The notes under the pieces were generated by a model. The model was given only the letters and a program-made list of their open reading frames with translations, ran no database searches and was not told the origin of the DNA. DNA of 64,000 nt. Source: Euglena gracilis. Taxonomy: Eukaryota. The DNA is taken from contig CP154954.1 in the NCBI GenBank assembly GCA_039621445.1, forward strand, positions 44,433,847-44,497,846, read 5' to 3'. Shown in pieces: positions 5,811 to 63,955 of this stretch (positions within the stretch are counted from its first letter, which is position 1; each line of letters starts with the position of its first letter). The position numbers were made by a program, and so were the translations under genes.

Positions 5811-5877
5811 TTCTCTGGACACACCATTTTTTGTGCATTTTCTGAGTCCGCACAGCTTTGATGCGACCAATCCAGTG

Positions 5878-10730: not shown

Positions 10731-10837
10731 TTACATACATGTGGGTATCAGGAGTCCAGGATAAAAAATTTCGAAATGATATCTCTGTCTTTCAGTCACT
10801 CTCTCTCTCTATCACTCTCTCGTATTCATAATGTGTT

Positions 10838-11046: not shown

Positions 11047-13902
11047 ATGGGTAGTCGATCGACCAGATGAAGGGTCGATTGACAGGTCGAAGTGTTGGTG
11101 ATTGATACGTGATAAATTGGTGCCTACAGGGGACCAGCTACCCCAAAGAGGCGCCCAACTAGGGTTAATACACATTGGGGGACCCTCGCTCGGCGCCTTC
11201 GGCGCCTCGCTCGGGTCCCCCAATGATTTTAACCCTAGTTGGGCGCCTCTTTGGGTTCGCTGGGTCCCCTGTAGACACCAAATTAACGACGATGAGGGGA
11301 TGGGATGGGACAGGTAGGAATGGAAACTTGACCCTAACCCTACGCCTTTAAATAACATCATCAACTTTTCGGGTTCTGGGCCTTCCGGCCTGCGGCCGCC
11401 GCCCGGGAGGGGGGGGGTTAAATAGTCGGTCACTGGTATCGACTTTTGGTGATTGATACGTGATAAATTGGTGCCTACAGGGGACCAGCTACCCCAAAGA
11501 GGCGCCCAACTAGGGTTAATAAACATTGGGGGACCCACGCTCGGCGCCTTCGGCGCCTCGCTCGGGTCAGGCTTTTGCTTAAGGACCCCCGGGGAGGGGG
11601 GTACTGGCTAGCCAATCGGCAAAAAACAAAAAAAAGTGGACTAGCTAGGCCCCCCCCTCCCCCCCGGGGGGGGGGGGGGTCCGGGGGTCCCCCGGACTGG
11701 AAAATTTTTTTTCCTCCGGCGCTGTGCGCCGGAGGAAAAACGAGGTTTTTAACAGGTTTTTGGCTGATTTTGTTCCAAAGATTCCCAAAAATGGCCAAAA
11801 ACGGGCATTTTTGGCCATTTTTGGGGGTCCCCAAAAAAATTTTCGGCGCTTCGCGCCGGTCACTGGAAAAAAATTTTCCACTAGCTAGCCCTGCTAGCAG
11901 ACCCCCCCCGGGGGGGGGCTGCTAGAAAACCCACTAGCCAAATTTGGACTAGCTGCAGTCCAGCCCCCCCCGGGGGGGGGGGGTGTACTGCAATCCCTTA
12001 AGCAAAAGCCTGGCTCGGGGGTCCCCCAGTGTTTTTAACCCTAGTTGGGCGCCTCTTTGGGTTCGCTGGGTCCCCTGTAGACACCAAGTTAACGACGATG
12101 AGGGGATGGGATGGGACAGGTAGGAATGGAAACTTGACCCTAACCCTATGCCTTTAAATAACATCATCAACTTTTCGGGTTCTGGGCCTTCCGGCCTGCG
12201 GCCGCCGCCCGGGAGGGGGGGGGGGTTAAATAGTCGGTCACTGGTATCGACTTTTGGTGATTGATACGTGATAAATTGGTGCCTACAGGGGACCAGCTAC
12301 CCCAAAGAGGCGCCCAACTAGGGTTAATACACATTGGGGGACCCTCGCTCGGCGCCTTCGGCGCCTCGCTCGGGTCAGGCTTTTGCTTAAGGACCCCCGG
12401 GGGGGGGGGGTACTGGCTAGCCAATCGGCTAGACACTGGAAAAAGTGGACTAGCGAGACCCCCCCCTCCCCCCCCGGGGGGGGGGTCCGGGGGTCCCCCG
12501 GACTGGAAAAAAATTTTTTTCCTCCGGCGCTGCGCGCCGGAGGAAAAACGAGGTTTTTAACAGGTTTTTGGCTGATTTTGTTCCAAAGATTCCCAAAAAT
12601 GGCCAAAAACGGGCATTTTTGGCCATTTTTGGGGGTCCCCAAAAAAATTTTCGGCGCTTCGCGCCGGTCACTGGAAAAAAATTTTCCACTAGCTAGCCCT
12701 GCTAGCAGACCCCCCCCGGGGGGGTCTGCTAGAAAACCCACTAGCCAAATTTGGACTAGCTGCAGTCCAGCCCCCCCCGGGGGGGGGGGGGGGTACTGCA
12801 ATCCCTTAAGCAAAAGCCTGGCTCGGGTCCCCCAGTGTTTTTAACCCTAGTTGGGCGCCTCTTTGGGTTCGCTGGGTCCCCTGTAGACACCAAGTTAACG
12901 ACGATGAGGGGATGGGATGGGACAGGTAGGAATGGAAACTTGACCCTAACCCTACGCCTTTAAATAACATCATCAACTTTTCGGGTTCTGGGCCTTCCGG
13001 CCTGCGGCCGCCGCCCGGGAGGGGGGGGGGGTTAAATAGTCGGTCACTGGTATCGACTTTTGGTGATTGATACGTGATAAATTGGTGCCTACAGGGGACC
13101 AGCTACCCCAAAGAGGCGCCCAACTAGGGTTAATACACATTGGGGGACCCTCGCTCGGCGCCTTCGGCGCCTCGCTCGGGTCAGGCTTTTGCTTAAAGAC
13201 CCCCCGGGGGGGGGGGTACTGGCTAGCCAATCGGCTAGACACTGGAAAAAGTGGACTAGCTAGACCCCCCCTCCCCCCCCGGGGGGGGGGGGGGGGTCCG
13301 GGGGTCCCCCGGACTGGAAAAATTTTTTTCCTCCGGCGCTGTGCGCCGGAGGAAAAACGAGGTTTTTAACAGGTTTTTGGCTGATTTTGTTCCAAAGCTT
13401 CCCAAAAATGGCCAAAAACGGGCACTTTTGGCCATTTTTGGGGGTCCCAAAAAAAATTTTCGGCGCTTCGCGCCGGTCACTGGAAAAAAATTTTCCACTA
13501 GCTAGCCCTGCTAGCAGACCCCCCCCGGGGGGGGTCTGCTAGAAAACCCACTAGCCAAATTTGGACTAGCTGCAGTCCAGCCCCCCCCCCGGGGGGGGGG
13601 GGGGGTACTGCAATCCCTTAAGCAAAAGCCTGGCTCGGGTCCCCCAGTGTTTTTAACCCTAGTTGGGCGCCTCTTTGGGTTCGCTGGGTCCCCTGTAGAC
13701 ACCAAGTTAACGACGATGAGGGGATGGGATGGGACAGGTAGGAATGGAAACTTGACCCTAACCCTACGCCTTTAAATAACATCATCAACTTTTCGGGTTC
13801 TGAATTGCAGCGGCATTCGGCCGCTGCGCGGCCTTCCGGCCTCCGGCCGCCGCCCGGGAGGGGGGGGCTTAAATAGTCGTCACTGGTCGATCGACTTTTC
13901 AT
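11047..13902. repeat. TIR-bounded tandem array of 4 units (one ~351-bp unit; three ~807-bp units carrying a family-1 MITE) inside a telomeric tract
   Basis: Unit start ttggtgattgatacgtgataaattgg at ~11095, 11446, 12253 and 13060. Outer inverted repeat agtcgatcgaccag / ctggtcgatcgact. Confidence 0.85.
11568..12012. mobile_element. hAT-like MITE family 1 (also 12376-12820 and 13182-13632)
   Basis: TIR caggcttttgcttaa; TSD gctcgggt; empty site with a single gctcgggt at 11209-11216. Confidence 0.92.
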
Positions 13903-13967
13903 AACCCTAACCCTAACCCTAACCCTAACCCTAACCCTAACCCTAACCCTAACCCTAACCCTAACCC
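13902..13967 (-). repeat. Interstitial telomeric repeat, (TTAGGG)n on the minus strand
   Basis: About 10 perfect ccctaa units. Confidence 0.95.
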
Positions 13968-14367
13968 TTTATCTTCGTAATTTGTGCGCATGTTCACCCT
14001 AACCCTGTTTTGAAAAAGCCTGTCTCTGGGGTCTAAACCATACTTCTTCCGAATAGCTTCGGATACATACGCCAAACCATTCCAATCGCTATCCATCCCA
14101 ACCCACGCCTTTCGCCCTGTCGAAAATACACTCTCGTCCTTCAGTAAAACCTTCAAAACCCTTCAGTCAGAGGAATAATTGGGCCAAAGATAAACAGGCG
14201 GGGGTCTAGGGGCCGGAAAGAACACCGTTTTCCGCAAATGGCACATACTGTGTGATGCACATGTGTAAGAGTGTGTGAAAGATGTGGGGAGTTAAAAACT
14301 GAGTAATTTTCCGACTGATTCTCTCTCTAAACAGATGCACGGTCTCCTGACGAGCAAGCATGTACAC

Positions 14368-14670
14368 GGGAGGAGGCTCGAGATTTCGTTCGAGGAGGCT
14401 CTAGAGCCTCCTCGAACGACCTCGAACGACGTTCGAGGAGGCTCTAGAGCCTCCTCGAACCTCCTCGAACCACGTTCGAGGAGGCTCTAGAGCCTCCTCG
14501 AACGACCTCGAACGACGTTCGAGGAGGCTCTAGAGCCTACTCGAACGTGGTTCGAGGAGGCTCTAGAGCCTCCTCAAACGCCTTTTAAGCCCCCCCTCGA
14601 GGGGGGGGGGTGCTTAAAAACGTTCGAGGAGGCTCGAGGTCGAACGTTCGATCTCGAGCCTCCTCCTACG
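14368..14670. repeat. Second foldback unit of CGAGGAGGCTCTAGAGCCTCCTCG palindromes
   Basis: Same palindrome as 10437-10730; a degenerate third copy lies at ~23955-24075. Confidence 0.85.
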
Positions 14671-15833
14671 GTTACCCCCCCGGGGTTGCTGGGCTAGGGC
14701 TAGAAATTTGGGCTGGCTAGCCCGCCCCCCCCCCCCGGGGGGGGCTGGACCCCGGCTGGACCCGAACCGGGGCGAGCTGGACTGAAATCGGAAAAATGCC
14801 AAAAAAATGACCCGCAGAACACAGTTTTGAAAAAAAAGATGCATCTGAAACCCCCCAAAAATGCCCCAAACGCCCCCCAAACCCCATTTTTGGCCACTTT
14901 TGAACACAGTTTTTCAAAAAATTTCGGCGCTTTGCGCCGAAAAATTTTGGGCTGGACCCCCCAAAATGGGCTGGCTGGCTGGGCTAGCAGCACCCCCCCC
15001 CGGGGGGGGGTGCTGCTGCGGCTGGGCTGGGCCCAAATCGGGGCTGGCTGCAGCCGCCCCCCCCCCCGGGGGGGTTCGCAAAACCTTAGAGAGATGTATG
15101 CATAACATGCATAACACACAAAACAGAATGACACCCACACCCACCCGCTGCTCCACAAGTGGGAAATGAAAAAGTGACCATTACAGCGGCTGGTTCCGAC
15201 GTATGGAGGAGGAAAACTGGTGTCCGGTGAAAGGAACAAATCTGGGAAATGAGAGAGAGAATGGGTGTGTGTGTTTGCGTGTTTGCAGAGGTGAATTATG
15301 GGACACGGTGTGGTGTCTGTCTGCGTCTCAAGGGTTAGGCTGGGAGAGCAGGAGGGGATGACGGGAGGGGGCAACAAAAACGGCGACAGGGAACTCTGCG
15401 GTGGCAGGACCCACGTTGAGGGGGAAGGGAAGGAGGCCCTCGCCCGGGCCTGCGAGGGCTGCAGGCAGCGGTGGGGCATGTTGGCTGTGGGGTCAGGACA
15501 TCTCGGGAGGCCATTGAGACCAATGGGCGGCGCACTGCAGCCATGACGCGCCTCGTGAGGCCTGCCCCCCCCCCACTGGGGCGATTTGCAGTATGGGTAA
15601 TTCCCCAAATAATACCCCTGGGGTATTATTCTTTCGCCCGAAGTCCTGGCCCGAGGGGGGGGATTATTTGGGGGGGGGGGGCAATACCACCCCAAAATTA
15701 TCGAAATTTTTCGAAGTCCCGTAGGAGCCAAAATAGCGCCAAAACTCCGTTTGGGGTCATTTTTTGTGCTTTCTTATGAAATTTACCATTTTTGGAGGTC
15801 ATATGATCCAGAAAAAATTGATTTTTTTTCGTA

Positions 15834-16308
15834 CCCGCCCCCCCCCCCCGGGCAATTGTCGCGTGACAAATCGGGCAGCACAGAGGGGGGTGACAATTTC
15901 CCGGGGTGACAATTTGGCCAGAACAGAGGGGGCTGACAATTGCCCGGGGCGTCAATTGCCCGGGGGCGTCAATTGCCCACCCATGTAAATCACATTTAAT
16001 CCAAATGACCAAGAACACCATCGGAAACACAAATGAACACAGGAAAAATGCAACTATGGTCGTGATATTGTACAGAGCGTTTGGTGTGCGAAAATTCTCA
16101 GCACGTTGTAGCGAAATAGAGGATCAATCGAGTTGTCGGCGAAAAGAAAATTCACAATGCAATACTGCAAATGCGGGGGTGACAAATTGGGCAGCACGGA
16201 AGGGGGTGACAATTTCCCGGGTGAAAAATTGGCCGGCACAGCCAGGGGTGACAATTGCCCAGGGGCGTCAATTGCCCGGGGGCGTCGATTGCCCGGGGGG
16301 GGCGCGGG
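15834..16308. mobile_element. Tc1/mariner-like MITE (TA TSD), family T2
   Basis: ta|cccgcccc..gggcaat ... attgcccgggg..cgcggg|ta with internal gtgacaatt repeats. Second copy at 30733-31214. Confidence 0.8.
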
Positions 16309-19736: not shown

Positions 19737-22700
19737 TTAGCAGCGGGGCGTCGCGGCGTCGTACAGGTCCTCTGTGGCGCACGACGGCTGGCGGTACACG
19801 GCGTGGGGGGAGGCCGGCTCCGGGTGGGGGGGCCGGTCCAGCAGGGAGCCGTCCGTCAGGGCCAGCAGCTCGAACACCACCATCTCCACCGCTGTCCGCA
19901 GACAGCCCCTTAAAGCGTGGGGCGGGGGGGGGGACGGATACGAAAGACACACCGGCCGCGGGGGAAACGGAATCAACGCCACGGGTAGGTCAGGAAACAC
20001 AGCAAGTGGTTGGCCTGAGGTCTAATGACAGAGAGGTCGAAAACATTTTGGCGTGAACTTTCTTGGCTGCAAACTGAGGTGAATAATGGGAACCCTGCGA
20101 AGCTGTCCATGCAGAGGTTATTTTTTAAGGACCCGGGTGGAGGGGGGTCCCCTTCCCGACCCTCCCCCCTCCCACTGGGTAAGACTGGCAGGAAGCTCCA
20201 AAAGTGCCCAAAATTGCGTTTTCAGGTATTTGCTTTCAGCAAATTGACAGAAACAGGTCATGAAAACATACGTCTGCTGGGAAAATTTCTTGGTTTCAAG
20301 GGGGGTCCCTGGACACCCCCTGGGGGGTTCAGACCCCCAGGGGGTGACCCCCCCTGGACAAAACCAACACTCACTTAATACCCTGCCCAGCCCGCCCGTC
20401 CCCCCCCCCGAGTCACCAAACTTAAAAAAAAATACTTGTGCCATTGTCCACTGTGGAAAGCTCTGACCTGGGTGCACATTCTGACACAGACGTTACTTAA
20501 TAAATTCATTTGAGATGTTGGTTGCAAAAATCGCCAACTTGCAAATGGCATGCTTTGGCACTGAACTCTACGATTCATTGCTCTGGAAAACACATAATTT
20601 GCAAATTATCCATTGTCCTGGACATTCACAAAATAGACAAAAAATCCGTCCAACTGTCCAAATACAATTTATCGAAGTTGCCAGAATCGAGTGGAAAACC
20701 TCCCTGGTTTAGACAAAACCAATTTCTTTTGGTTTCTGTTGCCAGCTGCAGCTGGCCGGGTCCCAACCAAAAACCCCAACAAATCATAGAAAATTGAGGT
20801 TATTTGAAGGAGTAGGATCAAGTTCTCGTGCGCACAACTGAATCCTTCCTGCAGAACGTCGTTATGTTGGCCTGACCCAAAGAGTCATTAATACACATGG
20901 GGGGCAAAGAGGGGCCAAACAAGCCAAATGTGCCGAGTGGCACATTTGGCCTCGCGTCCTCAACCTCAGTTGAGCAGCTCTTTGGGTTCACTGGTGCCTT
21001 GTGGGGATCAATTGGACCACATAATGATGCGACCCGATTGGGGTTGGGTTGTTGGACCTGTTGGCTCGTGAATGCCCACCCCTGGGAAACCGGGGAAGGA
21101 CCCACCGGGGGGAGGGGCTGGCCTGGCCTTGCCCTTCAGGCTGACGCCCTCCAGCCGGCGGGCGACCACCCGCCGCTCCACCGCTTCGTGCAGCTGCGGC
21201 CCGATGAGGATGCGCGTCTTGCGCTCCTTGTTGAGCCCCTCCAGCCGGCTTGGCCGCAGGCGCCCCTCGGGACCGGCCCCTCGGGGCCGAGCCCACGACA
21301 CTGGCGCGCCTGACGCCCACCAATACCGGCGAGTGGCGGGGACAGGGGGTTTTTTAAGACCGAGGGGGGGAGGGGCGAGGGGGTCGACACCCACCCACCC
21401 CCTGGGGTGGGGCTCCCGGGGGACCCTCCCACTTTTGCCCAAAAATGGCCAAAATGCTAAAAATAGCACCCTTTTCAAAAATTTTGGCGTCTTTGGCGCC
21501 AAAAAAGATATACCCACCAGCCCCTACCCCCACCCCCCCGGGGGAGGGGGAGGGGGTCCAAGGGACCCTACCCCCACCCTACCCCCCCCCCCGGGGGAGG
21601 GGGTCCAAGACTAAAAAAAACCGGGCGGGGGAGGGCGGGCCTGGCCGCCACGTTGACCACGTCCCCCACCACGGTGTAGTTCATGCGGTGCTGGGAGCCG
21701 AAGATGCCCGCCCGGACCTGCCCGGCCTCCAGGCCCATCCGCCCCGTGAGGTGGAGGCGCAGGGCACCCAGACCACAGGGGAGGGAACCCCCCGGACGCC
21801 CGCATGGGAGGGGGGTAGGAACACGGTGAGCCGGCGCAGTGTCCCTCCGCAGGGTGCTGGCCGCAGCCCCACCGTGCTGGGGCAGCAGTCCCCGATTGAG
21901 CTGAGTAGAATGAGGTGTACACGGCACAGAAGGTACCAGCTAACCCCCGATCAGAAGCCCTATCAGTCTGTTATTATGCACGTTGGTTAACGCCTGGGAG
22001 TAACGCCTGGGGGGGGGGGGGTTCTATCAGGCACAAATACAAGCTTTTCTCAAGTATTGTTGCTTTGGGGGGGGTGGAGGTTAATTTTAGAACTTTGGTT
22101 GAAAATACTGAGGGGGCTTCTGCCAGGGGCTTCTCCAAAAAAAAAGTGGGCAAAATTCTCCTTCCGGCGCTTTGTGCCGAGATTTTTTGGCACTTTTGAC
22201 AGGCTTTTTTTTTGCTCAAAAAAGTGTGAAAAATGGCAGTTTGGCAAATGTTTTTTGGCCAATTTCGGGAGTAAAAGTTTTCGGCCCGCGCTTCGCGATT
22301 TGGGACAGGGACATCTATTCTACTGGGGTTTGGTACTTGGGCTGGGGGACAAAGTCCCGAGGGCGGTTTGCTGTCTTCCAAAATGACACGTGAGCCAATA
22401 TGACCCCAACACGGCACCTTCCTTGAAAGTGGAGGGTGGGGTTGAGTGGGAGGCGGCAGGGGCACACGCCGCAACCCCCCCATCCCCCCCCCCCCCCCCC
22501 CCCCCACCCTCCCGGCCTTCGGCAGGCGCGCCGCGGGCGGAGGCCGGGGCCGTCCTGCCCGTGCAGCATCCAGTCCGCGCACTCCAGCGCCGCGCAGCAC
22601 GCCCGGAACTCATGGTCCGCCGTGGGCAGGCTCCGGCTTAAGGACCGTGGGGGGCACGCTGGCTGGCCATTTTGCTGGACGCTGGGGAAAACAGGAGGTC

Positions 22701-49836: not shown

Positions 49837-52800
49837 TCAGCAGGGGCGGACCGCATCTACACCGTCCTCCTCCTCATCCTCCTCGTCCTCCTCGGGGGCG
49901 GTGGTCACGCCACCGGGGGTGTGCCACGTCATGACGGTGTCCGGCCCGGAGGAGGACACCTCGGGGCCGTCGGGGTCCACCAGGCGGAGCAGCTCGTACA
50001 CGCTCATCCCCATCGCCAGCGGCAGGCAACCCACCACAGTTGGGAGTGCATGGCATGCACCTCCAGACACATGGGATTTTGGTGGTGTTGTCGGGATTTG
50101 TCAGGATTTGTCGGCTTGAGCTTGAGCTTGAGCTGCAGATCGTGGGGAGAGCAAATACACAATGGCCACTGGTGTGAGGGAGAGGTGGACTAAAAAATGC
50201 ATTTTCATTGCACCTTGTCAAAGAACCAGGGAAAAAATATAAAGAATCAAAACGTGCAAAGATAAAATAGCAACCGGTCTGGGAAAGAAACATTCCACGT
50301 TTTCATAAAAAAAACGTACACATAATTATTTTCCGGGTGATGGTTTTTGTTTCAACCTCTCCCATCGGGGCAAGCTTTGGAAAATCATCAAGACGGGTCA
50401 GCCACCACTGCACACGCCCAGTGGTGGTTTCAGGAGGTTGCTGGGTCGCTTGTCATCGCTTTCATCAAGTCCCAAAGCGACAAAAAATGCTCCAGTGCGG
50501 ATCAGATCTTGTAACTTTTGCTGCCCTGAAAAATAGTAAATGAGGTGTAAAAACTTTCAAAACCGCGTTATACCTGCCACGTACACCTTTGGCAACCATG
50601 TTCCCAATAAATTCTTTGCATCCACGAGAGAAAAAGAAGGTTTCTCACCATCGACGACCATATATTTGTTGTGCATTTTGTCATTTTGCTTTTTTTTCAC
50701 TTTTTTTGTGTCAAAAGGTCCAAAGCCCATTGAAGCGTGAATCCAGTCAAACAAAGGAAGAACCAACCCCAAAAAGGCCGATGGTCTCTGGAAAGATGGA
50801 CATTTTTGTTTCTAAAGGGCTGCAGTTCGGTAAAGATGTTGGCAAAGCTTTTGCAGCCTGCAACATTCCAATGTCAAGAGACATTTGGTGTTGTACTGGC
50901 AACCAAAGCTGCACGCTCCACCCTTTTCTTCACCATTTGAGCATGACTGCTCTCGACCCATCTCTTTTCATCGCCCACACCCCTTGAATATCCAACACAA
51001 TGACTTGATTGTATTCATTGAAGTAACCAGAGACTTTGCACACAACTTGCAATAAACCTTGCCTGGGGGGGAGGAAATTGAGACACTGTTGGACAGAGGT
51101 GCACACCTGAAATACTGTGTCCATGTGGATCGCTCTCAGCAATATCTGTCCAGCCTTCAGAATGGCGATATGCCACCCACTCAGCAACACTTCGACGTGA
51201 TGCATGAGTGCTCATGAGAAGACAAAGAGTCTTGGAAGAAAGCCAGACAGAGAGAGAGAGAGAGAGAGAGGAAATTGCACGGTACCAATCAAGTAAAACC
51301 ATCCCACTCACTTGGGAACAGGCACCTATGGTCACTTCCCATTTTGGTGCTCTGGTCGGCCCTGGTCGGCCCTGGTCGGCAAATAGTCGGCCATAGGTGG
51401 GGGTATCCTTCACAGAAAAAATGTGAAGGGATGCAATGATTTTCTGAATTGTCTCGCCAAGATCAAAAGGAAGTGCCCCATAAGGCCTCCATTGGCTCCC
51501 CAAAAGCAACCAAAATGACCTAAAATGGCTTGAAATAACCAAAAATTACCCAAAAGCGCCAACAAAATCCACAAAAGATTGTGAAAAGTGACCCAAAATT
51601 ACCAAAAGGGCGCAAAATGGCCTAAATGCCATAAAAAAACGCTCAGATTGACCCAAATTAGCCCAATAATTGCCAAATCAGTGACAAATAGCCCCCAAGT
51701 TAGCAAAAACTGGTCCATAATGGTCAAAATGGGTGTAAAACTGGAGATTAGTGAGAAAATTATCCAAAAGTTCTTCAAAATATACAAAAAAAAATGCCAG
51801 CATCACCCAGCATCGCCCAGCAACACCCTGCATCGCCCAGCATCGCCCAGCATCGGAACCCCACCTCTGGTCTCCAAAAATCCAGCATCACCCTGCATCG
51901 CCCAGCATCATCAGAGGTGCTTGTTCCAGAGGGAAAGCTGCCGAATTCCTTCATCCATTACCCTTCGGTCGGCCAACCACATGCAAATCGGCCCTGGTCG
52001 GCCCTGGTCGGCCCTGGTCGGCCATGGTCGGCCCTGGTCGGCCCTGGTCGGAACCCCCACCTACGGGGGTCCTGAAAATCATAATCGGCCCTGGTCGGCC
52101 CTGGTCGGCCCTGGTCGGCCCTGGTCGGCCGTAGGTGCCTGCTTGGGAACACTGGCCATTCCTTTTACCCTTTAATGGCTTTTTTGCAAAAAAAAATTCC
52201 GGTGTTGTCGGGATTTGTCGGGATTTGTCGGGATTTGTCGGGATTTGTCGGGATTTGTCGGAATCCCCACCTCCAGAAGGCCAAAAATGTGTTGTCGGGA
52301 TTTGTCGGGATTTGTCGGGATTTGTCGGGATTTGTCGCTGGAGGTGCTTGGTGCATGCCAAGGCGCTGGAAGGCTTTTTGGCCAACTTTTCCAGTGGGAC
52401 CGGGGTTCGAATGCCCACCCCTCAACAGGTGGGAAATTCTTTTGGCCAACAGCGCATATGTCAAAAAAAAAGCAAAAAAAAAATGGGGGAAAAAGCAGAC
52501 CGAAAATTTTTTCTGAAAAAAAGACTGATATGGGTACTTCCAGATATGCTTTTGGGCATTTGACCTGAATGGCTGCGCACCCCTATGCAATGGATTCAAA
52601 TCAGTGCAAATCAGCGGTCTAATTGATAAGCAGTTCAAAATTCGCCAGTTTTTTTGCAAGAAATATCAACCACTAATTTTTCCACAAACTTACCACTGAA
52701 TCATACCAAATAGCACTGCTGGATGAATGGGGAGGGCAGAGGCGGTCGCCTGAACTTGCCCTTCAGGTAAACGCCGTCCAGCCTCCGGGTAAAATCCAGG

Positions 52801-55800
52801 CTGCTGTCTGGACCTGAGCATCTGAACTGGACCCCTAACCCCCAAACCCCCCAAAAGCAAAGATAACAAGATCCCATTTTGTGGCTCAAGGAAGAACATT
52901 GAAACTGTGCAACTGTTCGCAGTGGCAGGGGGGGGGGGTGTGGGGCTCCGTCTCCTCAAACCCCCCAGAAGCTCTATAATAATAATGATGATAATAATAA
53001 CAAGAACAAGTTGTCATCTCAAAAGTGTGCAAGTTGCAAAAAAAAATTTTAATCTGATGTGAGTTTCCTGCCTACCCCACCCACCCTTGCCCTCCTTCAC
53101 CCCCTCCCTGGCCACTCCTCACTTCCTTCGGCCATATGTGTGGAACCCTTCGCAATGTTGTTTGCCTGGTCGGGATTTCCGGTGGTTGGAAAGCCCCCCC
53201 CCGGCAGGGCTGTACGGGACGGCCTGGTGGGGAGGGTGGTCGACCCCCACCTGCGAGGTGGGGGGGGGGCGACCCCCCGTTTCAATGGACAAGGAGAAAG
53301 TTCTTTTCGGTGCCTTTAGCGCAAAAGCAAAAAAAATGACCTAAAAATCGGCGCCCCCAGAAATACTGGAAGGAGTGGGGAGGGGTTCGAACCCCCACCC
53401 ATCAGGATAGGGGGGAGGGGAACTCAGGCTGGCAAAATTTGGCCATAGGTGAGGTGTATGGCCATTTCAGGCTGTTTTTGGCCCCTTTGGTAATTTCACC
53501 GCTGTGGCCGATTCTTTTTGAACCACTTTTGGTGTTTTTTTTTGAAAAATGAAAACGAAGTCAAATTAATTACTTCCATAACTTTAGAACCAACATCACA
53601 TCCAGAAAATTAATCGCATCTGACCAAGGGTGGCCCGAAGTTTATGTCAGCAGACCCGGGGGGGGGGGTCCATACCCGGCTGGGAGCTGTTGGCTGGGAA
53701 AGAAAAAGTGCTGGGTAGACCCCCGGGGGTGGGGGGTCTGGGGGAGGGGCAGGGCAGAACGGGAAGAGCTGGTGGGGGGTGACCCCCCACCCGGGAGGGG
53801 GGTGGGTCGACCCCCCCCCACCCACCACAGCATTTTCACCGATTTCGGGAAAACGGGGATTTTGGCCAGAAAAAATTTGATTTTTTTTTAAAAAAAGGAC
53901 CCAAAACACATCATTTTTTGATGGAAAACCACAAAATCTCAAAAAATTCAGGGTTGAGAATTGGTAGTTTTTAGGGGGGGGGTGAAAAAAACGAAGGTCA
54001 AAAAAATAAGACCAAATTTTGGCACAATCAAATTTTACTAACATTTTTTCTCTTTGAATTTTTTTTGGACTTTCAATGGCATTTTTTGCTTCAAACACCT
54101 CTCAAAACCAAAATTTTGAGAAAATGTTGAATTTCTAGAATGTGTGAAAAAAATGGGGTTTTGGGTGGTTTTTGGGGGGACCCCGTACATGGGTCCCAAA
54201 ATGGGTCAAAAAAAAACACCCGGCGCCGAAGGCACCGAAAAAATTTTTCGGGTCCAAAAATTGGTGCTCCCGGAAATACAGGAAGAGGTGGTGGGGGGGG
54301 GTCGACCCCCCCCCCACCCACACCCTGGCTGTTCGGCCGACTAGGGGGGCAGGGCTGTACAGGAAGAACTGGTGGGGCACTGAGCGAGGAAAATGTTGAA
54401 ACCGGTGGGAAACACAAGCTTGCCTGGTGGGGGGGGGGTCGGACCCCACCAGGGACCCGTCGGGTTTTGAGGATTCCCATGCAGCCCTGTCGGAGGGGAT
54501 CGTTGGGACGTTGTTGGACAACCCAAAACAAGCCGCTGGACAAATGAGTGATCCTTAACGATTATCTTGGATTTCAAAGAGAATATTAACATAGAATACA
54601 AAAAAAAATATAATATTATTGGTTTCTTCCAGAAATGTCAGAAAGCGGGCTTCAACTTCATTATTCAATACATTACCCACCCCTGAGCAACCACTTTCAA
54701 TTCCATGAATAATGTGCTGGATGTTGCTGCTGCTGGTTGTTGGGAGGGGGGGGGACTTTGAGCAGACCTCAACAGGAGCCTCGACACCACCCGCCGCTCC
54801 ACCGCGGCGTGCAGCTGCGGCCCGATGAGGATACGCGTCTTGCGCTCCTTGTTGAGCCCCTCCAGCCGGCTTGGCCGCAGGCCCGCCCCTGGTCCTTCTC
54901 CAGACAGCTGCGACTTTCCACAAGTGCCCGACAGCCACTTTGTGGTGGCTGGCACTGAACTCCTCCGAATTAAAGCAAACTGATGCTTCAACCTGGGTCT
55001 CGCTAGTAACTGCTTAGGCGACCCATCTCGCACTTAAGCTTTGTTTTCTTTGACAAGGTATGACCCCAAAAACCCAAAAATGTAGGCAGGATGTGATGTG
55101 GTGCCCCAGGACATCAACCATTTGTGCAACTGTAAAAAGTCCAATGTGTGCCAGCTGAAATTGATGTGTTTGTAAAATTGTACAAGTGGTTGGTTTGTGG
55201 AAATACGAAAACAGACTTTTTGGTCGGTTTGCGCATCTGCTCACACGGACCTCTGGTACAACTTAACACACGTACCATTCAGAGGGTGTGGCACCACTGC
55301 AGTTTTGAAATCCTTAAATGTGAGGCATTCTGTACAACTTAAGTGCAACTAAAGAACCAGCCTGCGGGCCCGACTTCGGGCATCGGCAATTGAAGCTCTG
55401 AAAAACCATCTCTTAGCCCCTGAAACATCAAAATAAACAACATTTTCAGGTTTTACCCTGAAGAACTGAGTTTAGAGGTGCACCCCCAGTATTTCAGTCC
55501 GAAAATGAGGCACAGTGCATTGGCTGAAAATGGATGTGTCTGCTGACTTGAAAATCCCTGTGTTCAGGGGACCATATAATGTAATACACTGACACGCTTC
55601 ATCTGACCTTCTCAGAAATACCTTACAACACAACCACTTTGAGCACAACCTCCATCCACAATCCACTCTCCTCCTGTTTCGATCTTTCTCTTGCCTCAGA
55701 AGTCCCTGTTGCCAAAACATCAAAATGAAAAAGAATTTTGGTTGGTGCCAACAGTTGTGAAGAGCGACCATTTTAATGGTTGATGTGCAGATTTGAGCAA

Positions 55801-58800
55801 ACCAACTACCCAAACATACCAGCAGCATTCAACAGAGGGGTCCAGTGCCACAAGAATACAAGGGAGGTAATATCACGATGTTGTCACATTCATTTTCCAG
55901 CTCCAAACACACTGCCATTGGAGGCTCTTGGTTGGTTTTAAAGTGGTCGGTGTGCGCAAATGTGCACAAATGCGCACATCGTCCATGTGCGCATTTGCGC
56001 ACACCGACATCATTTACTCTGTTGTGTGGGTGCCACAGAGCCTTATAAATCAGTGGGGCATTGATGGGCAACTTGCCACCTAATTCAACAGGAAACTGGT
56101 GGCAGTCCTCCTGTGTTATGTATCCCCCTCATCAATCAATCAATCAATCAATCCCCAATAGCAGAGTTTTCTTTCTGTCCACTGTTTATGTGGCATGTGC
56201 TTCCACTCCTTTCATAACCAACTTCCAAAACCTGCACAACGTGCCGCATAACTTCAGAAAGCAAGCAAAGGGGTGGACCTGCCACCCCGCTTCCAGAGCA
56301 CCACCTGCCGCTGGCACTTGTTCACACAGGGAATGGGGGGTGGCGGTACTGGGGTTTTGGTGCTTTTGTCGGTGTTTTTTTTTTACTTTGGGGGGATAGG
56401 TCCGGGTTTTTTGTGTCATTCCGAACTCAAAAAAAAAAACTGCAAAAAACATCTAACTCCTGGGAGAGCCGGTGCCATAAACAATAATCCGCTCATATTC
56501 AGTCCAATCCTGTTGCCTTTCGCTCTCACCCCTTGTAACGCCGGTGCTCAAAGTGGTTTTTGGGTCGGTTTGCGCAAATGCACAAATCAACCAAAAAAAT
56601 ACAAAAATCAGCCCATGAAATTTTCGGTGGATTATCAATACTCCACGGAACTATCAGAGTCATGACAAATTGAGCCCAGGTATTCTGGATTCGTGGCAGT
56701 CCATCCGCCCCAGGCCATTTTGGCAACTTTTTCCCCGACAACACTGGACACCGAAATTGATTTCCCATTTTCTGTACCCATGTTCCAGCCAATAAATGCC
56801 TGTCATGCAAAATAAAAGTGGTTACTTTTGGACATGGTTCACCATCAGTGCTGCCAGCATTGGCATCAGTTTGTAATGAAAAATGGGCAGCATACTCCAA
56901 GGCACTAATGTTTTCTAATTCACCACCCCGTAAAGCATAATTGTATGCCGCGGGGAAGCCCACGATTATTGACTTTCCTTCATGCAAAAGGGAAACCAGT
57001 TCTGTTGTGCCCACCTCTTCTACAAAAGGGTCATCCAAATTGTCCATCCCACGAGAATCCATTAGGATGGCAGTTGCATCAAGCATTCTCCTGTCCTCCC
57101 CATCTCCATCTTTATTGGTGTTCTCAGCACATTCATTCTGAGATTCCTCATGTTCGCTATCATCCTCATCATCGTCATCATCATTGTCCATTTCATCGGC
57201 AATGTCATTGTCATTGTTCTCATCACGAATTTGGGCTGCTCCATCAATATTGCATAGTTCATCCCCCTCTCCGCCGATGTTTGTAGCCCCACTCACACAG
57301 ATTGTGTCTTCATTCGTTTTTTTGTCACCGAGTTGTTCCACATTTGGAAAAAGTGCTGGCAAATTGGAGATATAATGCCAAGGATTTACCATCACAAATT
57401 TATGGGAAGCGTGCCACGACGGAAAACCTAGTACTGCCGTTGCTGCCATTTGGGCTCCCACTTCAATTTTTCTATCCATGGCATTAACAACGCGTTTCAA
57501 AAGTGCGGCATAATCTTCCTTGTCTTGTATTTTGTGTCCCAGGCGTTCCTCAACTTCATCCATGACATGACGCAGAACAGATAAAACGCCACCCAGTTTT
57601 ACTGGGTTTTTTGTGCAATATCCCACAACGTAATTTGCCAGAGCAAGCACCCCAACCTCTCCACCGAGAATTTGGGCATTTGAGTTACATGCAAGGACAA
57701 AAGAAACAATTTTGCTGCAATCGACGACGCGACCATCACATTTGTGTGGTCGCTTTGTTTCCCAAACCACTAAATGGCTGTCAATTGTCGGATCCTGTGC
57801 AATGTTTGCAACGTGTTCCAACGGAATTTCTTGTAAATCATGTCCACCAGTATCCACTTTACGTGCCACAAAAAGGTGGGGTCTTGTTTCATCTGAAAGC
57901 AACCCACACGCACGTGGCATGCCAAAACGACAACCAAACTTGCCAGCAGGTGGCTTTCCACAACTAGGTATGAAACAACGGTGTATTTGCAGGGCCCCCA
58001 TGACTTCCTCTGCAAATTTTGTAATGGACATATACGCGTCCTGTACATTTTCGGGCAATGGGGGCAAATATTCCTTTTCTTCCAACATTCTGGGCGCTGG
58101 ACAATGCTCCCTTTGCCTTTGCTCCCATTTCTCATGCACTACGTTGGATAAACTGGTGCTTATTTGAGAATCCAGAGCCCTTGCTGCAACCTTGATTGTT
58201 TCTTCATCGTGAATGATTGAATCCAATACATGCGGAGGAATTCCTCCCCAGAATACCCCATGCCCGTGCAACGAACCTCGAGATTGAGCCTCGGTGCAAA
58301 TAACTGCAGCTACTGGTGTCCCATGCATGCCAACTTTTCTGGAACACGTGGATTCATGTTTTCGAGTAGTTTGTGCATCGGGCACTCTCAATAAAACTTT
58401 CATGAAGGCGAGCACTTGTCTCTCAAATATCCTTGCAGCAGCCACTGGGTTGTTGGAAATTGCAGCAAATTTTTCTGACGTTTCCGGCATTTTTAGTGAT
58501 AATTTGGCCTTGCCCAAACACAATGCTAATGTCAACATGTTATCCACGTCATTTGGGGCAAATGTGAAAAAAACGGATGGCATCCCAAACCATGCAAGCA
58601 TTGCTTGCATTTTTCCGAGAGTGGCGTACCTTTCGGAAGAACCGAATGGTACAATGCTATGACAAGTGCGGATGATTGGCAAAAACTCCATCAGCAATTT
58701 TGTAGCCAACGAACCCGTAGGGTTCTTCATTGCCTCTGCCAAGCGTTCTTTAAAATCAACACTATTCACGGCGTTTTCAAAACGAGTCAAAAACGAAGGG

Positions 58801-61800
58801 GTTGCTTTGAGGCGACGACTTATACTCCGGAGAGCCATGTGCCTTAATTTTTGATTAAAAAGGAGCAAGACAAAATCTCTGTTTTCCGAAAACCTGTGAT
58901 CATATTGATACAACAGATGACGCACAGTCTCGGTATTTAACCCACTGTTTTTTTCAATGCCTTGATATGTCATGAACAACGTGGGAAATGATCCTCGTGC
59001 AATTAAATCTTCAAAACACACAACGGGACCAACATACGAGGGAGGAAATGAATGCTTCCATCAATTGTTCCGAGTTGGTGAATGTATCAGATTGCGTTCC
59101 AAAGGTGGCTGCGAATATTTGGAAGGCAAAGGGGGATGGTTCTTGTTTTTTTTATTGCGTGCTGGGTTCAAATGAGCCCAGGGATGCAATACAATGCAAT
59201 ACATCTCCATTGGCGGGATTGTGTAAACTTTTGCAATGTGGTTCATGCAATTTTCGATGTGCATCCTTCGTCCATGTGCGCCCACATCCCATACGACACG
59301 CATATAATCCAGAATGCTGTAATATTGTTGCACAAATTTTCTCGTGCTCGTTCCGTGCTTTCCTACACTGAAATTTTAAAACATTGTCTGCCCCAGGTTT
59401 CAATACTTTGTCTGCTCCCTTCCCATCGTACGATATCCCCACCTGCAAATACAAGTTTTGTAAATGCTTGAAAGTCATTGGCATGGACTTGTGTTGGCAC
59501 ATATAATTCACCAGCTGCGCACGGGGAAGTAAGGAGCGCAATCTTCGCACAATCGTGCAAAGATCATCATTACTCCTGAGTTGAATGAGGCGTATGTCCT
59601 CTGTACGTCTGACCCGACTGATACCAACATAAAACGCATTGTATGACAAAGTGGGAGTTATCGGATGGTCAACACATAAAATAATTTTGTCCAATGTTCG
59701 ACATTGGACACCATGAAAAGTTGTTGCAAACAACAAATTAAAAGGATGTGCCATCACTGTCACAATGCCCCTTTTTTTGGACGATAGATGCATGTACCGC
59801 GCAACGTTAACCTCCCGTGGCATAGAAAACAAGGGAATGATTCTTCCACCCTCCTCTGTGACGCCAAGAGCAGCATCGCCTGTCACCTCACCGGAAACAA
59901 CTACATTTACAGCATAAGGGGGGTATTCCAACGTTATAATTTCCCCCGGCAATGCCCCCGAAATCCTTTCCAACGTCTCCTGGAGGTCATGTTCATTCAG
60001 CACGAGGGAATGGATAAAAGCCCTTGTTCCATTTGACAACCCTCGTTCCGGCCGTATGTTGTATGTCAAAGTGATAGGACAACCTTCCACAACATATGCC
60101 CATAAATCCTTCACTTTGGCGTACATGACATTTTGTAAATCTTCACCAATGCAGGCGGCAAAATCATTTTTCAATGGTAACTTCCATTTTATTATGGGTT
60201 TTCTCATGCTTTCAGCACATAACCGAACCATGACTTCATTCACCATGTGTACACACTTTCGGTCTGTGGAGACAATAAGGGCATTTGACCACGACCTGTC
60301 CCTTTGAAAATCAGAGGCTGTTATCATTTTCAACGATGCCAAAAATGTGTCTCGCGCCTGCAGTCCTTGTAGTGAAAAATTCCGGTAAGCTGCCACTGCA
60401 GCCATGTGCTCAGGATCCTTTGCTCTGTGTTGGGTGTTGAGGCTGAGGACTTTGAAGGATTGAAACAACGTATAGCCTTCTAATGCATCCAACATTCCTG
60501 CAAATTGTGTCTTAGGTTTGATGTATAGATCTCCCCCACCAACTGGGGGAATTTGAACGAAATCACCCATTAGAACCACACCCATTCCCCCGAATGGTTC
60601 AGTGTTGTTGTCGCACACTTTGCGCATGCGCTTGTCAATGTCCCGCAACATTTTGCAGGTCAACATGGACATTTCATCAATGAGAAGCACTTTGCAACCT
60701 GTGAACTGGGATCTCAAACGGTATAATTTTTCCCTTCCTCCATCCTGTGCAGTGTCATTCATACCTTCCTCTCCATACACACTCAACCCCACTGCATGGT
60801 GGCACGTTGACCCTCGATGCAAATTGCATGCAGCAACCCCAGAAGGGGCCATGAAGCGCAAAACATTTGAACCAAATGCCATGGACAGCCGGTTATGCAA
60901 TTCCCTTGCCATTGTGCTTTTGCCTGTTCCAGGTCCAGCATGTACTACGACGAGTGGAGCGGTTGTTTTGCATGATGGATCTGCAATGCAAACAAGTTGC
61001 ACGTAATCCGTAATCATTTTTACGAAACTTTCTTGTTCCTCCGTCAAAAGCACACTGCTTTGACCACATAGGTGTACTGTGGCTGGGTTTGTTCCCACCC
61101 GGGAACCGAGTTCTGCGCGCGGAAAATCATCGCTTTTCAATGCCAGGTACGTCTTATTCAAAGTATCTGATAAGGGAACCTTAGGATCAAATGGGTTTGC
61201 ATTGTTAATGTGCAATGCGAAGCACTTGCTAGTTGTTGGAGATGGCATTGGCTGTCCGTGTTCTTCCCCATGTCTGGCGAAGGTTTTCAATAGCACATTA
61301 ACCAACCGTGGCTCGTCATGGTCGCTTTCGTTGAAACCTTCGTTGCTAAATTTCTGCATGGCCTCATGAAGGTTGTGCAGGGTGTCGTGAAAATGCTGAA
61401 TTTTTGTACAATGCCTCATTTCTTGCATTGCACTTCTTTCTGCCAAAGCATCAAAATTTATGTCCAGTGGGTGCGCAGTACCCCACTTCTTTTGGTTTCT
61501 GTTTCTGATTATGGCAGAAAGAATCGAAGATTTTTGTGAAACGGTGGTTAGGCTTTTCAACCTCTGAACATAAGCAACCCGTGCACGATCTACATATGGT
61601 GCATCTTTTTCTCCTGCACACTGTTCCCACTGCGAGATGCGCGCCTAAGAACTGGGTCTCGCCAGTAACTGGGACTCGCCAGTACCGCTGCTTCAGATTC
61701 GAGGGGCAGAATGGTGGGGCCGGGCCTGGCCGCCACGTTGACCACGTCGCCCACCACGGTGTAGTTCATGCGGTGCCGCGAGCCGAAGATGCCCGCGTGG

Positions 61801-63955
61801 ACCTGCCCCGCCTCCAGGCCCATCCGCCCGGAGAGGCGGGCGCATGGGGCTCTGCTGGGAATGAGGCGGTGCGGGCGGGGGAAGGAATGGATTGCAGAGG
61901 GAAGTTGACTTGGGGGAATGGTGTCGTGGCTGTGAGAAGGTATCCGCCCGGTGCATCTCGCACAAACGAGGCTTTGCTGGTTCCCCACTGGTGATGAAAA
62001 GGGAGGAGGGTTGCACGGGAAAAGCCACCCTCTCCTGCTCTTTCCTGAGGACGGTTCACCATCAGCGCGTCTTTTAACGACCCCCTCCCCCAGGTTGTCC
62101 AGTTCAGAGGCTGGAAAACTCGGGCTGCCGGATGAAGGCTGCTGGTTGACCTTGGGGTGCCAGGCTTGGGCTGGAACTGGGCCCAACCCAGGGTCGAACC
62201 GGGAACCCAAATTTCAACACTGCAAAACTCCAAAAAAAAATCTCCAATTGTGCAAAAAGACGATTTTTTTCACCCCAAATTCGTCCTGGCCAGCCCTTTC
62301 CGACCCATTTTTGCCCATTTTCGGCCCATTTTTTGAAGCACCTGAAAGCCAAAATTTCATCACCGTCCAGGGTGGCTTGGAACAAATGATAAAACCCGTT
62401 GATGGGGGGCGTCTAAGCTGGAAAAAGGCTGGCTGGCTCCTCCCTGGGGGTGGGATCGAATTTTCTTCAACTCACCAATCTTTCTGCATCCCTGGCTGCC
62501 GTTCTGTGCCCCCCCCCCCCAAGTGGAAATCACACAAGATGACCATATCCTATTGCCCAGATTGATTCCACTTCCCGCCTGGCCGGAGAACGTCCGTCCA
62601 AAATCAGTCATCACGGCCAGAAGGCAGGTCTTCAGCCCATCCCCCATCTCCGGGCCCCGCGATAAAAAAGCCACCCAGCCTGCGGGGCCGCAGGGCGCCA
62701 TGCCCGCAGGGAGCCGCCCTGCCGGTGGACCATCCAGTCCGCGCACTCCAGCGCCGCCCGGCACGCATGGTACTCGTGGTCCTTGACGGGGGACGGGGCG
62801 TTCCAGAAGGCCATGACGCAGTCACCGGCAGGCGATGGGCCGGGGCTTTGTTGTCCAGAAATGCGGGTCTTGAAAAGCAGGGGATGCCAGTGTTCACGGT
62901 TTTCAAAAACGACAGAGAAAAGGATGTGGTCGGGAAATAAAAAAAAGCACACAACCAACACCCTTCACAGCCCTCCACCCATTACCCCACAACGATGTCA
63001 TCTCGTTTCTGTGCATTACATCCTTTGATCCTGAATCTCTTTGGTAAAGGAAACGCTTGCTGAAATCAACGGCAAATAACTGCGGACAAAGATCAATCCC
63101 TCGTCCAGGAAACCACGAGTATCAAAGAGAAGCAGGGAGTGAGATGCTTCTCCAGCGGGTCTAACACAGCACTCCAAACTCATGCATATGGTCTGGGGCC
63201 AAGGCCCACCCTGGCCGCCAATGTACTTGTCGATCACCCCGCGGCGCCGCACGATGATGGAGGACAGCTCCTCGAAGAACGCGCCGATGCTCTCCACCAG
63301 CTGGGCCCAGGGATCGGCAACAAACAAAAGCCAGAAAAACAAACGCGAACCGCCACCGAACTACCCTGCATTCAGCCTCAGAACAAAGTGCTCTAATTGT
63401 GCCAAGGGCTGGAGCACTGGTGGGCGTGGATTTACCTCGCCAGGTCGGGAAAAACCGCTGCAGACCATTGTCCTTCAGCAATGCAAAGCCCCAGCAGGGG
63501 GGGGGGGAAGATATTTGCAAAAGGAGGGCATTGCAGGAAGTAATCCATCCGGAGACATTTTTGGTGCACAGGGCGAAGCGCCAAGCTGAAAAACCTGCCT
63601 CCCAAAATGCTTCCTGGAGTCAGTCCCTTCCTGGAGTCAGTCTGGCCCTCCTGGTAGGTGGAGGTTTGGTCCGGACCCCCCTCCAATCTAGGAGGGGGGG
63701 GGGGTGTCAACCCCCATCCTGGACACCCTCCATTGTCCCCAGGATTTGATCCACAAAGCTGTTGGGGGAGGTTGAAAACTCATTGCAAAGAACTGATATG
63801 CCCAATCCCACGGGTAATGGGGTTGGGGAACTCTTCTTCTATTGGTGAAAGTTCGTTCTGCCCTCAACGGCATGCGAAGACCTGACTGGGCCGCATCGGT
63901 GGACTCGGTTAGGTTGGTAAAGTTCTCAATGTCAAGGAAGAACACTGTGGCAGCC
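49837..63955 (-). CDS. Adenylyl cyclase B (tandem paralog, 5' part beyond the window): exons ~63888-63955, 63217-63302, 62725-62823, 61732-61838, ~54778-54872, 52756-~52787, 49837-50017
   Basis: ATVFFLDIENFTNLTESTDAAQ|LVESIGAFFEELSSIIVRRRGVIDKYIG|DCVMAFWNAPSPVKDHEYHACRAALECADWMVH|RLSGRMGLEAG..NYTVVGDVVNVA|SRLEGLNKERKTRILIG..|RRLDGVYLKGK|AMGMSVYELL..; highly similar to cyclase A. Confidence 0.9.
50560..51220 (+). pseudogene. Possible degenerate hAT-type transposase remnant
   Basis: QFGKDVGKAFAACNIPM resembles the hAT/CGGBP-like 'F..D+..A+..ANIP' segment. Downstream frameshifted LIVFIEVTRD and PAFRMAI..CMSAH weakly resemble the first-Asp and CxxH motifs. Judged by eye only. Confidence 0.3.
51319..52141. 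mobile_element. hAT-like non-autonomous element with (CCCTGGTCGG)n subterminal repeats
   Basis: TIR caggcacctatgg / ccgtaggtgcctg; perfect 8-bp TSD cttgggaa. Confidence 0.9.
52202..52337. repeat. (GGGATTTGTC)n decamer repeat, two blocks
   Basis: Directly visible; also at ~50084-50113. Confidence 0.9.
55946..56008. other. GC-rich hairpin (17-bp outer stem plus an overlapping 12-bp inner stem)
   Basis: gtcggtgtgcgcaaatg ... catttgcgcacaccgac; inner aaatgcgcacat-cgtcc-atgtgcgcattt. Confidence 0.8.
56526..59021 (-). CDS. Helitron-type HUH Rep endonuclease (Helitron2/Helentron-like); frame open to a stop at 59061-59063, true start uncertain
   Basis: 831-aa ORF: FPTLF, motif I FFTFAPND, motif II EAQSRGSLHGHGVFW (HUH), HRC..C..CRFGMP, motif III YVVGYCTK (Y2), an acidic tract, and the C-terminal linker WAQFVMTLIVPW. 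Confidence 0.92.
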   Translation of the reverse strand: MCFEDLIARGSFPTLFMTYQGIEKNSGLNTETVRHLLYQYDHRFSENRDFVLLLFNQKLRHMALRSISRRLKATPSFLTRFENAVNSVDFKERLAEAMKNPTGSLATKLLMEFLPIIRTCHSIVPFGSSERYATLGKMQAMLAWFGMPSVFFTFAPNDVDNMLTLALCLGKAKLSLKMPETSEKFAAISNNPVAAARIFERQVLAFMKVLLRVPDAQTTRKHESTCSRKVGMHGTPVAAVICTEAQSRGSLHGHGVFWGGIPPHVLDSIIHDEETIKVAARALDSQISTSLSNVVHEKWEQRQREHCPAPRMLEEKEYLPPLPENVQDAYMSITKFAEEVMGALQIHRCFIPSCGKPPAGKFGCRFGMPRACGLLSDETRPHLFVARKVDTGGHDLQEIPLEHVANIAQDPTIDSHLVVWETKRPHKCDGRVVDCSKIVSFVLACNSNAQILGGEVGVLALANYVVGYCTKNPVKLGGVLSVLRHVMDEVEERLGHKIQDKEDYAALLKRVVNAMDRKIEVGAQMAATAVLGFPSWHASHKFVMVNPWHYISNLPALFPNVEQLGDKKTNEDTICVSGATNIGGEGDELCNIDGAAQIRDENNDNDIADEMDNDDDDDEDDSEHEESQNECAENTNKDGDGEDRRMLDATAILMDSRGMDNLDDPFVEEVGTTELVSLLHEGKSIIVGFPAAYNYALRGGELENISALEYAAHFSLQTDANAGSTDGEPCPKVTTFILHDRHLLAGTWVQKMGNQFRCPVLSGKKLPKWPGADGLPRIQNTWAQFVMTLIVPWSIDNPPKISWADFCIFLVDLCICANRPKNHFEHRRYKG
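59152..61560 (-). CDS. Pif1-family SF1B helicase of Helitron type with a C-terminal C2H2-like finger; frame open up to the TIR (61644)
   Basis: AGPGTGKS, MAPSGVAA, GSTCH, LLIDEMSM, PFGG..MGDFVQIPPV, QHR, GLSNGT, FATTFHGVQCRTLD, YVGISRVR; C-terminal CRMGCGRTW..HRKLHEPHC. Confidence 0.95.
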   Translation of the reverse strand: MKSLTTVSQKSSILSAIIRNRNQKKWGTAHPLDINFDALAERSAMQEMRHCTKIQHFHDTLHNLHEAMQKFSNEGFNESDHDEPRLVNVLLKTFARHGEEHGQPMPSPTTSKCFALHINNANPFDPKVPLSDTLNKTYLALKSDDFPRAELGSRVGTNPATVHLCGQSSVLLTEEQESFVKMITDYVQLVCIADPSCKTTAPLVVVHAGPGTGKSTMARELHNRLSMAFGSNVLRFMAPSGVAACNLHRGSTCHHAVGLSVYGEEGMNDTAQDGGREKLYRLRSQFTGCKVLLIDEMSMLTCKMLRDIDKRMRKVCDNNTEPFGGMGVVLMGDFVQIPPVGGGDLYIKPKTQFAGMLDALEGYTLFQSFKVLSLNTQHRAKDPEHMAAVAAYRNFSLQGLQARDTFLASLKMITASDFQRDRSWSNALIVSTDRKCVHMVNEVMVRLCAESMRKPIIKWKLPLKNDFAACIGEDLQNVMYAKVKDLWAYVVEGCPITLTYNIRPERGLSNGTRAFIHSLVLNEHDLQETLERISGALPGEIITLEYPPYAVNVVVSGEVTGDAALGVTEEGGRIIPLFSMPREVNVARYMHLSSKKRGIVTVMAHPFNLLFATTFHGVQCRTLDKIILCVDHPITPTLSYNAFYVGISRVRRTEDIRLIQLRSNDDLCTIVRRLRSLLPRAQLVNYMCQHKSMPMTFKHLQNLYLQVGISYDGKGADKVLKPGADNVLKFQCRKARNEHEKICATILQHSGLYACRMGCGRTWTKDAHRKLHEPHCKSLHNPANGDVLHCIASLGSFEPSTQ

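Follow-up and report, generated by a model that had tools for sequence, protein, structure and literature searches.

A circularly permuted Helitron-type RepHel unit probably carried by a non-autonomous terminal-inverted-repeat element in an intron of Euglena gracilis

We analyzed a 64,000-nucleotide stretch of the Euglena gracilis genome (NCBI GenBank assembly GCA_039621445.1, contig CP154954.1, positions 44,433,847 to 44,497,846 of the forward strand; hereafter, the window), in which an insertion of ~6.6 kb at positions 55013–61649 carries two long open reading frames (ORFs), one for a Pif1-like helicase and one for a Rep protein with an HUH nuclease, in that order. We find that the insertion contains a permuted and broken copy of a RepHel gene of ordinary architecture, lying within a non-autonomous element with terminal inverted repeats (TIRs), and that it is not a new class of transposon. 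Specifically, the insertion is probably a repeat element, which we call T, that carries one circularly permuted unit of a Helitron-type RepHel element, which we call H, opened at a single point, s, within the gene (Table 1).

The two ORFs together make up one RepHel gene, which is broken at s = 56600|61631, in the linker between Rep and helicase. On the minus strand, the helicase ORF (61560..59152, 802 aa; PF05970 PIF1, E 1.1e-23) precedes the Rep ORF (59021..56526, 831 aa; PF14214 Helitron_like_N, E 2.1e-20), such that at this locus the helicase is not C-terminal to Rep in one polypeptide. The Rep HxH and YxxxY-K motifs, the latter with two Tyr, align with those of 13 relatives, and Pfam finds in the two ORFs only Helitron_like_N and PIF1/AAA families, with no endonuclease domain. 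A preliminary description of this stretch had listed two uninterrupted ORFs of ~800 aa, Pif1 helicase followed by HUH Rep; their order and domains stand, and each is free of stops and frameshifts, although they prove to be two halves of a broken gene. A relative, P0033, is colinear with the two halves across the break: its residues 36–339 align to residues 514–803 of the Rep ORF (P0001), and its residues from 345 onward align to the helicase half from the first codon within 61631, at 61629 (residue 6 of the frame taken from stop to stop), which is where helicase coding homology begins. The five P0033 residues between both alignments correspond to five codons in the window. Beyond the break, the stop-to-stop helicase frame stays open as far as 61644, within the right TIR, and the Rep frame of this copy continues for 24 codons into T before its stop at 56526. 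Neither half of this copy is able to make a RepHel transposase, since the Rep half lacks a helicase and the helicase half lacks its upstream coding sequence. An assignment of the Cys/His-rich helicase tail to the N-terminal zinc-finger region of another relative, P0004, was rejected (BLASTP E 27).

The unbroken form of the gene is present in sequencing reads bearing the same species label. Contigs from runs X1, X5 and X15 were mapped to positions 54400–62300, the contigs listed being 161–525 nt long, and in all three runs position 61631 is joined directly to 56600, with zero letters between, i.e., the contig goes back by 5,032 nt. In X1, this joint lies in a 391-nt contig (depth 364) with 0 differences on 210 helicase-side bases (61422–61631); in X5, it is found in two contigs (depth 315.7), and in X15 in a 326-nt contig that differs from the window at 1 position on one side and at 0 on the other. 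In a diverged variant, 61610 is followed by 27 other letters and then by 56605. On the minus strand, the joint of 61631 to 56600 keeps the reading frame, giving 4,941 nt, or 1,646 aa, with a single terminal stop. As the depth of the X1 joint contig is similar to the depths of internal H contigs of the near-identical subfamily in the same run (362, 279.9, 415.5 and 407), the joined form is the usual one for this subfamily, and the near-identity of joined copies to the window (0–1 differences in X15) points to a very recent split, not to an evolved architecture.

Comparison with 157 relatives leads to the same order. In all 49 relatives matched by both ORFs the Rep match is N-terminal, and helicase-first order was found in none of the 49. 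In 34 of the 157, a single high-scoring segment pair runs across s, with at least 20 aa on each side. The domain order in P0019 and P0040 is DUF6570, Helitron_like_N, PIF1. We also observed a cluster of RepHel proteins from other organisms (P0064 and P0160–P0166), of 1,761–1,766 aa on contigs of just 5,966–6,784 bp; such compact RepHel units leave little room for non-coding DNA, an economy similar to that of the 5,032-bp unit H. Two further scans, one for the Rep protein in metagenome contigs and one with a 5-sequence alignment in viral contigs, gave 74 and 91 pattern matches, respectively, of which none was confirmed.

The outer boundaries of the insertion are those of a TIR element. Its left end reads CTTAGGCGACCCATCTCGCA and its right end, in reverse complement, CTTAGGCGCGCATCTCGCA; the two are 19–20 nt long and match at 17 positions with one indel, giving an end-anchored alignment score of 15, which was attained by 7 of 200,000 random 22-mer pairs drawn from the window. 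The TIR-bounded insertion proposed in the preliminary description is thereby supported, with the amendment that the TIRs are imperfect. Used as a pattern, the TIR has one match in the window, the left end itself, and the right end, with its shorter spacer, is unmatched. AACTG stands on either side of the insertion as a presumed 5-bp target site duplication (TSD). The 17-mer AACTGGGTCTCGCCAGT, searched with up to 3 mismatches, has three matches, of which one borders the element on the left and two on the right, a count seen in 0 of 100 shuffles, and the tandem is also detected by Tandem Repeats Finder. Deleting the element together with one AACTG leaves three 17-bp tandem units and regains the 17-bp period, as the preliminary description had stated. 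No empty allele of the insertion site was seen. Also in line with the preliminary description, Pfam found no DDE transposase or integrase domain inside the insertion, in the two long ORFs and the longest T ORF on each strand.

We assign the TIRs and the TSD to T, a repeat of ~1.6 kb consisting of 55013–56599 and the 18–19-nt right TIR. Summed contig depth in X1, which is not a copy number, is ~109,000–175,000 over T (six bins, 54928–56511), 1,808–16,058 over H and 38.5 for the exact contig of the unique flank; the bin 56512–56775, one third of which is T, reaches 55,367, and the bins that T fills only in part, at either of its edges, come to the T level when scaled. The read depth of T is thus ~10–80 times that of the RepHel part, and most T copies therefore cannot contain H. 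It is the TIR termini of T that face the host DNA and bear the TSD, which makes H the cargo of T and not the reverse. T has 23 ORFs of at least 50 aa, the longest of which on each strand has no Pfam match. Further copies of T or H were absent from the window, where a blastn self-search returned only a paralogue of the flanking exons (see below) and T's own palindrome, and the T-end pattern had no matches in metagenome contigs. The T terminus CTTAGGCG combined with a 5-bp TSD fits no family among those testable. Three other descriptions of T were rejected: T inserted into H, since the TIR termini face the host intron and not H; a composite of two T copies, as the right TIR is in the wrong orientation; and a solo long terminal repeat (LTR), as the termini are not TG..CA. 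TSDs of 5 bp are typical of LTR elements. Within T, at 55940–56010, 55217–55243 and 56558–56587, we observed a near-perfect 23-nt palindrome pair, 96% complementary, together with a GGTCGGTTTGCGCA-type motif that is dispersed in three to four copies and occurs in either orientation; the palindrome and motif copies may be binding sites or nested mini-elements.

Table 1. Features of the insertion and its surroundings, in window coordinates.
Feature	Coordinates	Strand	Basis
Nonconventional (non-GT/AG) host intron around the whole element	54873..61732	-	6.86 kb; exons ~54786–54872 and 61733–61838
Presumed 5-bp TSD, left copy, AACTG	55008..55012	.	duplicate at 61650–61654
Left TIR of T	55013..55032	+	anchored alignment score 15
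T body: highly abundant repeat, ORF-less, with palindromes inside it and a 23–27-nt motif in dispersed copies	55033..56599	.	contig depth, repeat search
H: exactly one 5,032-bp Helitron-type RepHel unit, circularly permuted	56600..61631	-	joint contigs, in-frame join
Rep half: HUH nuclease and linker up to s	56600..59021	-	Pfam, motifs, relatives
Spacer j, 130 bp, helicase stop codon to Rep frame start	59022..59151	-	contig cover at 59116
Helicase half: Pif1-like SF1 helicase and C-terminal Cys/His-rich tail	59152..61631	-	Pfam, P0033 alignment
Right TIR of T	61631..61649	-	base 61631 common to H, possible 1-nt overlap
TSD, right copy, AACTG	61650..61654	.	matches left copy

H sits 18–19 bp inside the right end of T, and both of its ends fall at the one gene position s. 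On the plus strand the unit begins TA.. and ends ..ACT; it is flanked by A56599 and T61631/G61632, no duplication is present at s, and position 61631 also belongs to H in the joined contigs. Since the two ends of H coincide to the nucleotide within the gene, a single cut in a closed unit is called for. The helicase and Rep halves are separated by the spacer j, which would be the junction of a head-to-tail array or circle of H, or else a joint made by recombination. Position 59116 in j is covered by seven X1 contigs with a reach of 53 nt or more from a contig end, and j contains a weak hairpin followed by CTGA, the fold of which is not significant (z -0.5). We also note joints in read contigs between 58995 and 59202 on opposite strands (depth 128.7 in X1 and 157.2 in X5), indicating that some H copies have an inverted junction beside j. 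RNA reads from run X21, of which ~5/100 were read, are uninformative on the expression of H, as nearly all of the 183 placed reads lie on T or on exons, and the depth over H is 0–1.1.

Helitrons transpose through closed circles with precise head-to-tail junctions, which are competent for transposition (PMC4778049). A comparable history would account for the arrangement in the window: a closed H monomer, formed either as a circular intermediate of Helitron transposition or by recombination out of a head-to-tail array, would have been cut at s and joined to T directly inward of the right TIR, perhaps overlapping it by 1 nt at 61631, in which case j would be the head-to-tail junction of H. T itself would have been moved by a transposase encoded elsewhere, with the 5-bp duplication made in the intron. 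Either T took H along into the intron of a cyclase-like gene, or H would have entered T after T had landed there. The preliminary description had offered as one option a Helitron circle captured by a TIR transposon, and of this proposal the single, exactly permuted 5,032-bp unit inside a TIR element is upheld.

Several points weigh against a closed monomer carried by T. A circle of H was not observed, and the unit may just as well derive from a head-to-tail array, which would yield the same contigs; the unit in the window could also stand for a collapsed array. The canonical Helitron ends (5'-TC, CTRR-3' and a significant 3' hairpin) were not found at s, where the hairpin and fold scores are not significant (z 0.31 and -0.16), nor convincingly in j. 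Among the contigs listed, none spans the element or the T/H or T/flank junctions, so that the assembly of the locus is provisional. We infer from depth alone the independence of T from H, its canonical right end and the length of its TSD; a 22-bp duplication with 2 mismatches is arithmetically as good as a 5-bp TSD. Finally, P0003, P0004, P0006 and P0008 have ~660–770 extra N-terminal residues, including DUF6570, and tblastn found this N-terminal region to be absent from the window. Given this extra region in the nearest Rep relatives, H may be 5'-truncated, a possibility countered by P0064, whose Rep homology begins at residue 48, and by the small size, ~6 kb, of the contigs on which P0064-type relatives are found.

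We considered four other explanations of the same data. The least likely is the undescribed HUH/Pif1 class that the preliminary description had put forward, an element designed with two genes, one for the helicase and one for Rep, that would by itself produce the staggered, TIR- and TSD-bounded insertion. The intact frames and catalytic motifs, the lack of a detectable DDE transposase or integrase, and the reality of the TIRs and TSD would all suit such an element. However, the break falls within coding sequence that is contiguous and conserved in relatives, the two halves are fused in frame in X15 copies with 0–1 differences, the helicase frame extends into the TIR and lacks a start context of its own, no relative matched by both ORFs is helicase-first, and the ~10–80-fold excess of T depth leaves most T copies without H. 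We therefore regard this class as hardly credible: the window holds a single break in a normal RepHel, and the TIRs and TSD bound a separate repeat. We see somewhat more merit in an assembly artefact, although it too is unlikely, in which a mis-threaded repeat graph placed H into a plain T insertion or an H array of several units was collapsed. T and H are both repeats, the short contigs leave the T/H and T/flank junctions uncovered, and at 59116 the letter of the window occurs in no X1 contig; yet a random mis-join would not place both ends of H at one nucleotide, exactly between T body and TIR, and a collapsed array would alter the copy number, with the boundaries at s, and hence the reading, unchanged.

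Filler DNA from gap repair is a further explanation, template switching during such repair being a proposed origin of TIR elements with gene fragments. Here, repair after excision of T would have copied only the right TIR, switched to an H template and then returned to the T body. H does lie directly inside a TIR, where such switches begin, and a 1-nt overlap at 61631 is possible, but the use of the same nucleotide for entry and exit of a 5,032-bp unit would be a coincidence of ~1 in 5,000, and is automatic if a single circle was cut, which makes filler DNA very unlikely in our view. In the remaining explanation, H is a rolling-circle replicon or transposon with its own cleavage site at s, persisting as circles or concatemers, such that every integration of unit length splits the gene and T is a mere target. 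This would explain why the unit is nucleotide-exact at both junctions, as expected of an enzyme-made cut and join, and would suit an ORF of 1,646 aa that fills all but ~90 bp of the circular unit, as well as the compactness of the P0064 relatives. The flanks A (56599) and T/G (61631/61632) make an A|T target arithmetically possible, several contigs cover the spacer j at 59116, and the loose ends listed have 1–4 contigs in H versus 22–51 in T (X1, X5), as few chromosomal junctions would give. Against it, the loose ends listed include none at 56600 or 61631, s has neither a hairpin nor a nick-site motif, and it lies within coding sequence conserved in 34 relatives; to our knowledge, no known Helitron family has its termini in the Rep–helicase linker. 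We give this explanation only a small chance of being correct, and consider it similarly improbable that H is a 5-kb rolling-circle unit persisting as circles or head-to-tail concatemers, of which unit-length copies, opened inside the gene, lodge in abundant TIR elements that can then carry them around the genome. A permuted monomer carried by T is our preferred reading.

The whole element is situated in an intron of a host gene, as 54872/3 is joined to 61732/3 in loose ends of RNA-derived X15 contigs and in X21 RNA reads. The intron has CAG at +4..+6 and CTG at -8..-6, with complementary ends. Together with non-GT/AG borders, these features constitute the signature of euglenid nonconventional introns (PMC11282704). 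A paralogue of the flanking exons, 33 kb away at 21179–21764, has the same intron position and borders with an intron of ~380 bp, of unrelated content and rich in G/C homopolymers; because of this paralogue, the RNA reads are not assignable to this gene copy. One flanking exon resembles the adenylate/guanylate cyclase domain (E 0.0019, below the Pfam cut-off), and the host gene is thus weakly indicated to be cyclase-like. Elsewhere in the window, the segment 62056–62300 to the right of the element is highly repeated (summed X1 depth 29,672 versus 190 in the preceding bin), and 51350–52340 contains perfect or near-perfect 10-bp tandem arrays with units CTGGTCGGCC, CCAGCATCGC, TCGGCCCTGG and TTGTCGGGAT, in 3–6 copies each. 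The segment 40207–41363 has low GC (0.40–0.42) and long ORFs on both strands in several frames, of up to 330 aa, two of which were compared to Pfam with no match; ten other long ORFs of the window are likewise without a Pfam match.

Each part of the insertion has parallels among known systems. Pack-MULE and Pack-CACTA elements are non-autonomous TIR elements that carry foreign DNA by transduplication, and T resembles them in being ORF-less, in its TIRs and TSD, in having a captured segment between its ends and in depending on a transposase in trans; unlike in Pack-type elements, the cargo here is a whole permuted unit of another transposon and not a host gene fragment. Helentrons and Helitron2 elements are Helitron-like RepHel elements with short asymmetric terminal inverted repeats and no TSD, from which the present case differs in that the TIRs bound the abundant repeat T and not H, and in that Pfam detects no endonuclease domain. 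Integrated Rep-encoding replicons, e.g., geminivirus-related DNA in plants, are linear and permuted and often occur as head-to-tail multimers; such replicons break at the replication origin and have a Rep with an SF3 helicase. H is likewise a permuted linear copy, but its break lies in the coding sequence of a RepHel with a Pif1-type helicase. H also resembles Helitrons such as Helraiser in having a RepHel, in which a Pif1-like SF1 helicase is combined with an HUH nuclease that shows HxH and two Tyr, Rep being first when the two are joined. Helraiser circles can re-integrate (PMC4778049), and a unit-length permuted H is what an opened circle would leave. Unlike Helitrons, H is opened within its gene and not at termini with the 5'-TC and CTRR-3' ends, which were not found, the TSD and TIRs around it are those of another element, and the DUF6570 region of its nearest relatives is absent from H. 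Replitrons, another group of eukaryotic HUH-Rep transposons, occur in algae and protists and may be rolling-circle elements; their termini are reported to be short direct repeats, a TSD is absent from every family but one, and the term Pif1 does not occur in the text of their description (PMC10288648); the Rep studied here differs from them in matching Pfam Helitron_like_N.

A literature search covering main texts turned up no publication that describes a euglenid Helitron, T or a permuted Helitron unit, nor one on a closed Helitron unit preserved in a euglenid genome or on one euglenid transposon carrying another, and a search for Euglena and Helitron returned nothing on euglenid Helitrons by title or abstract. 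A preprint on extrachromosomal circular DNA of euglenids (10.1101/2023.11.29.569251) makes no mention of Helitrons or helicases in the body of its available text, and its supplementary tables may list circles that bear on H.

For annotation, the present case illustrates that two clean 800-aa ORFs in the apparently wrong order need not mean a new architecture, the order having been settled here by joints at the level of reads. Should H instead persist as concatemers or circles, it would represent a piggy-back between two unrelated transposition systems, with a 1,646-aa ORF filling nearly the whole unit. Natural footprints of Helitron circles are rare, and the circular intermediate is known mainly from a reconstructed bat element in cell culture (PMC4778049). 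If our preferred reading is true, a non-autonomous TIR element would have been shown to pick up a whole foreign transposon, and the unit-length, permuted RepHel inside it would represent a closed monomer preserved as a genomic fossil.

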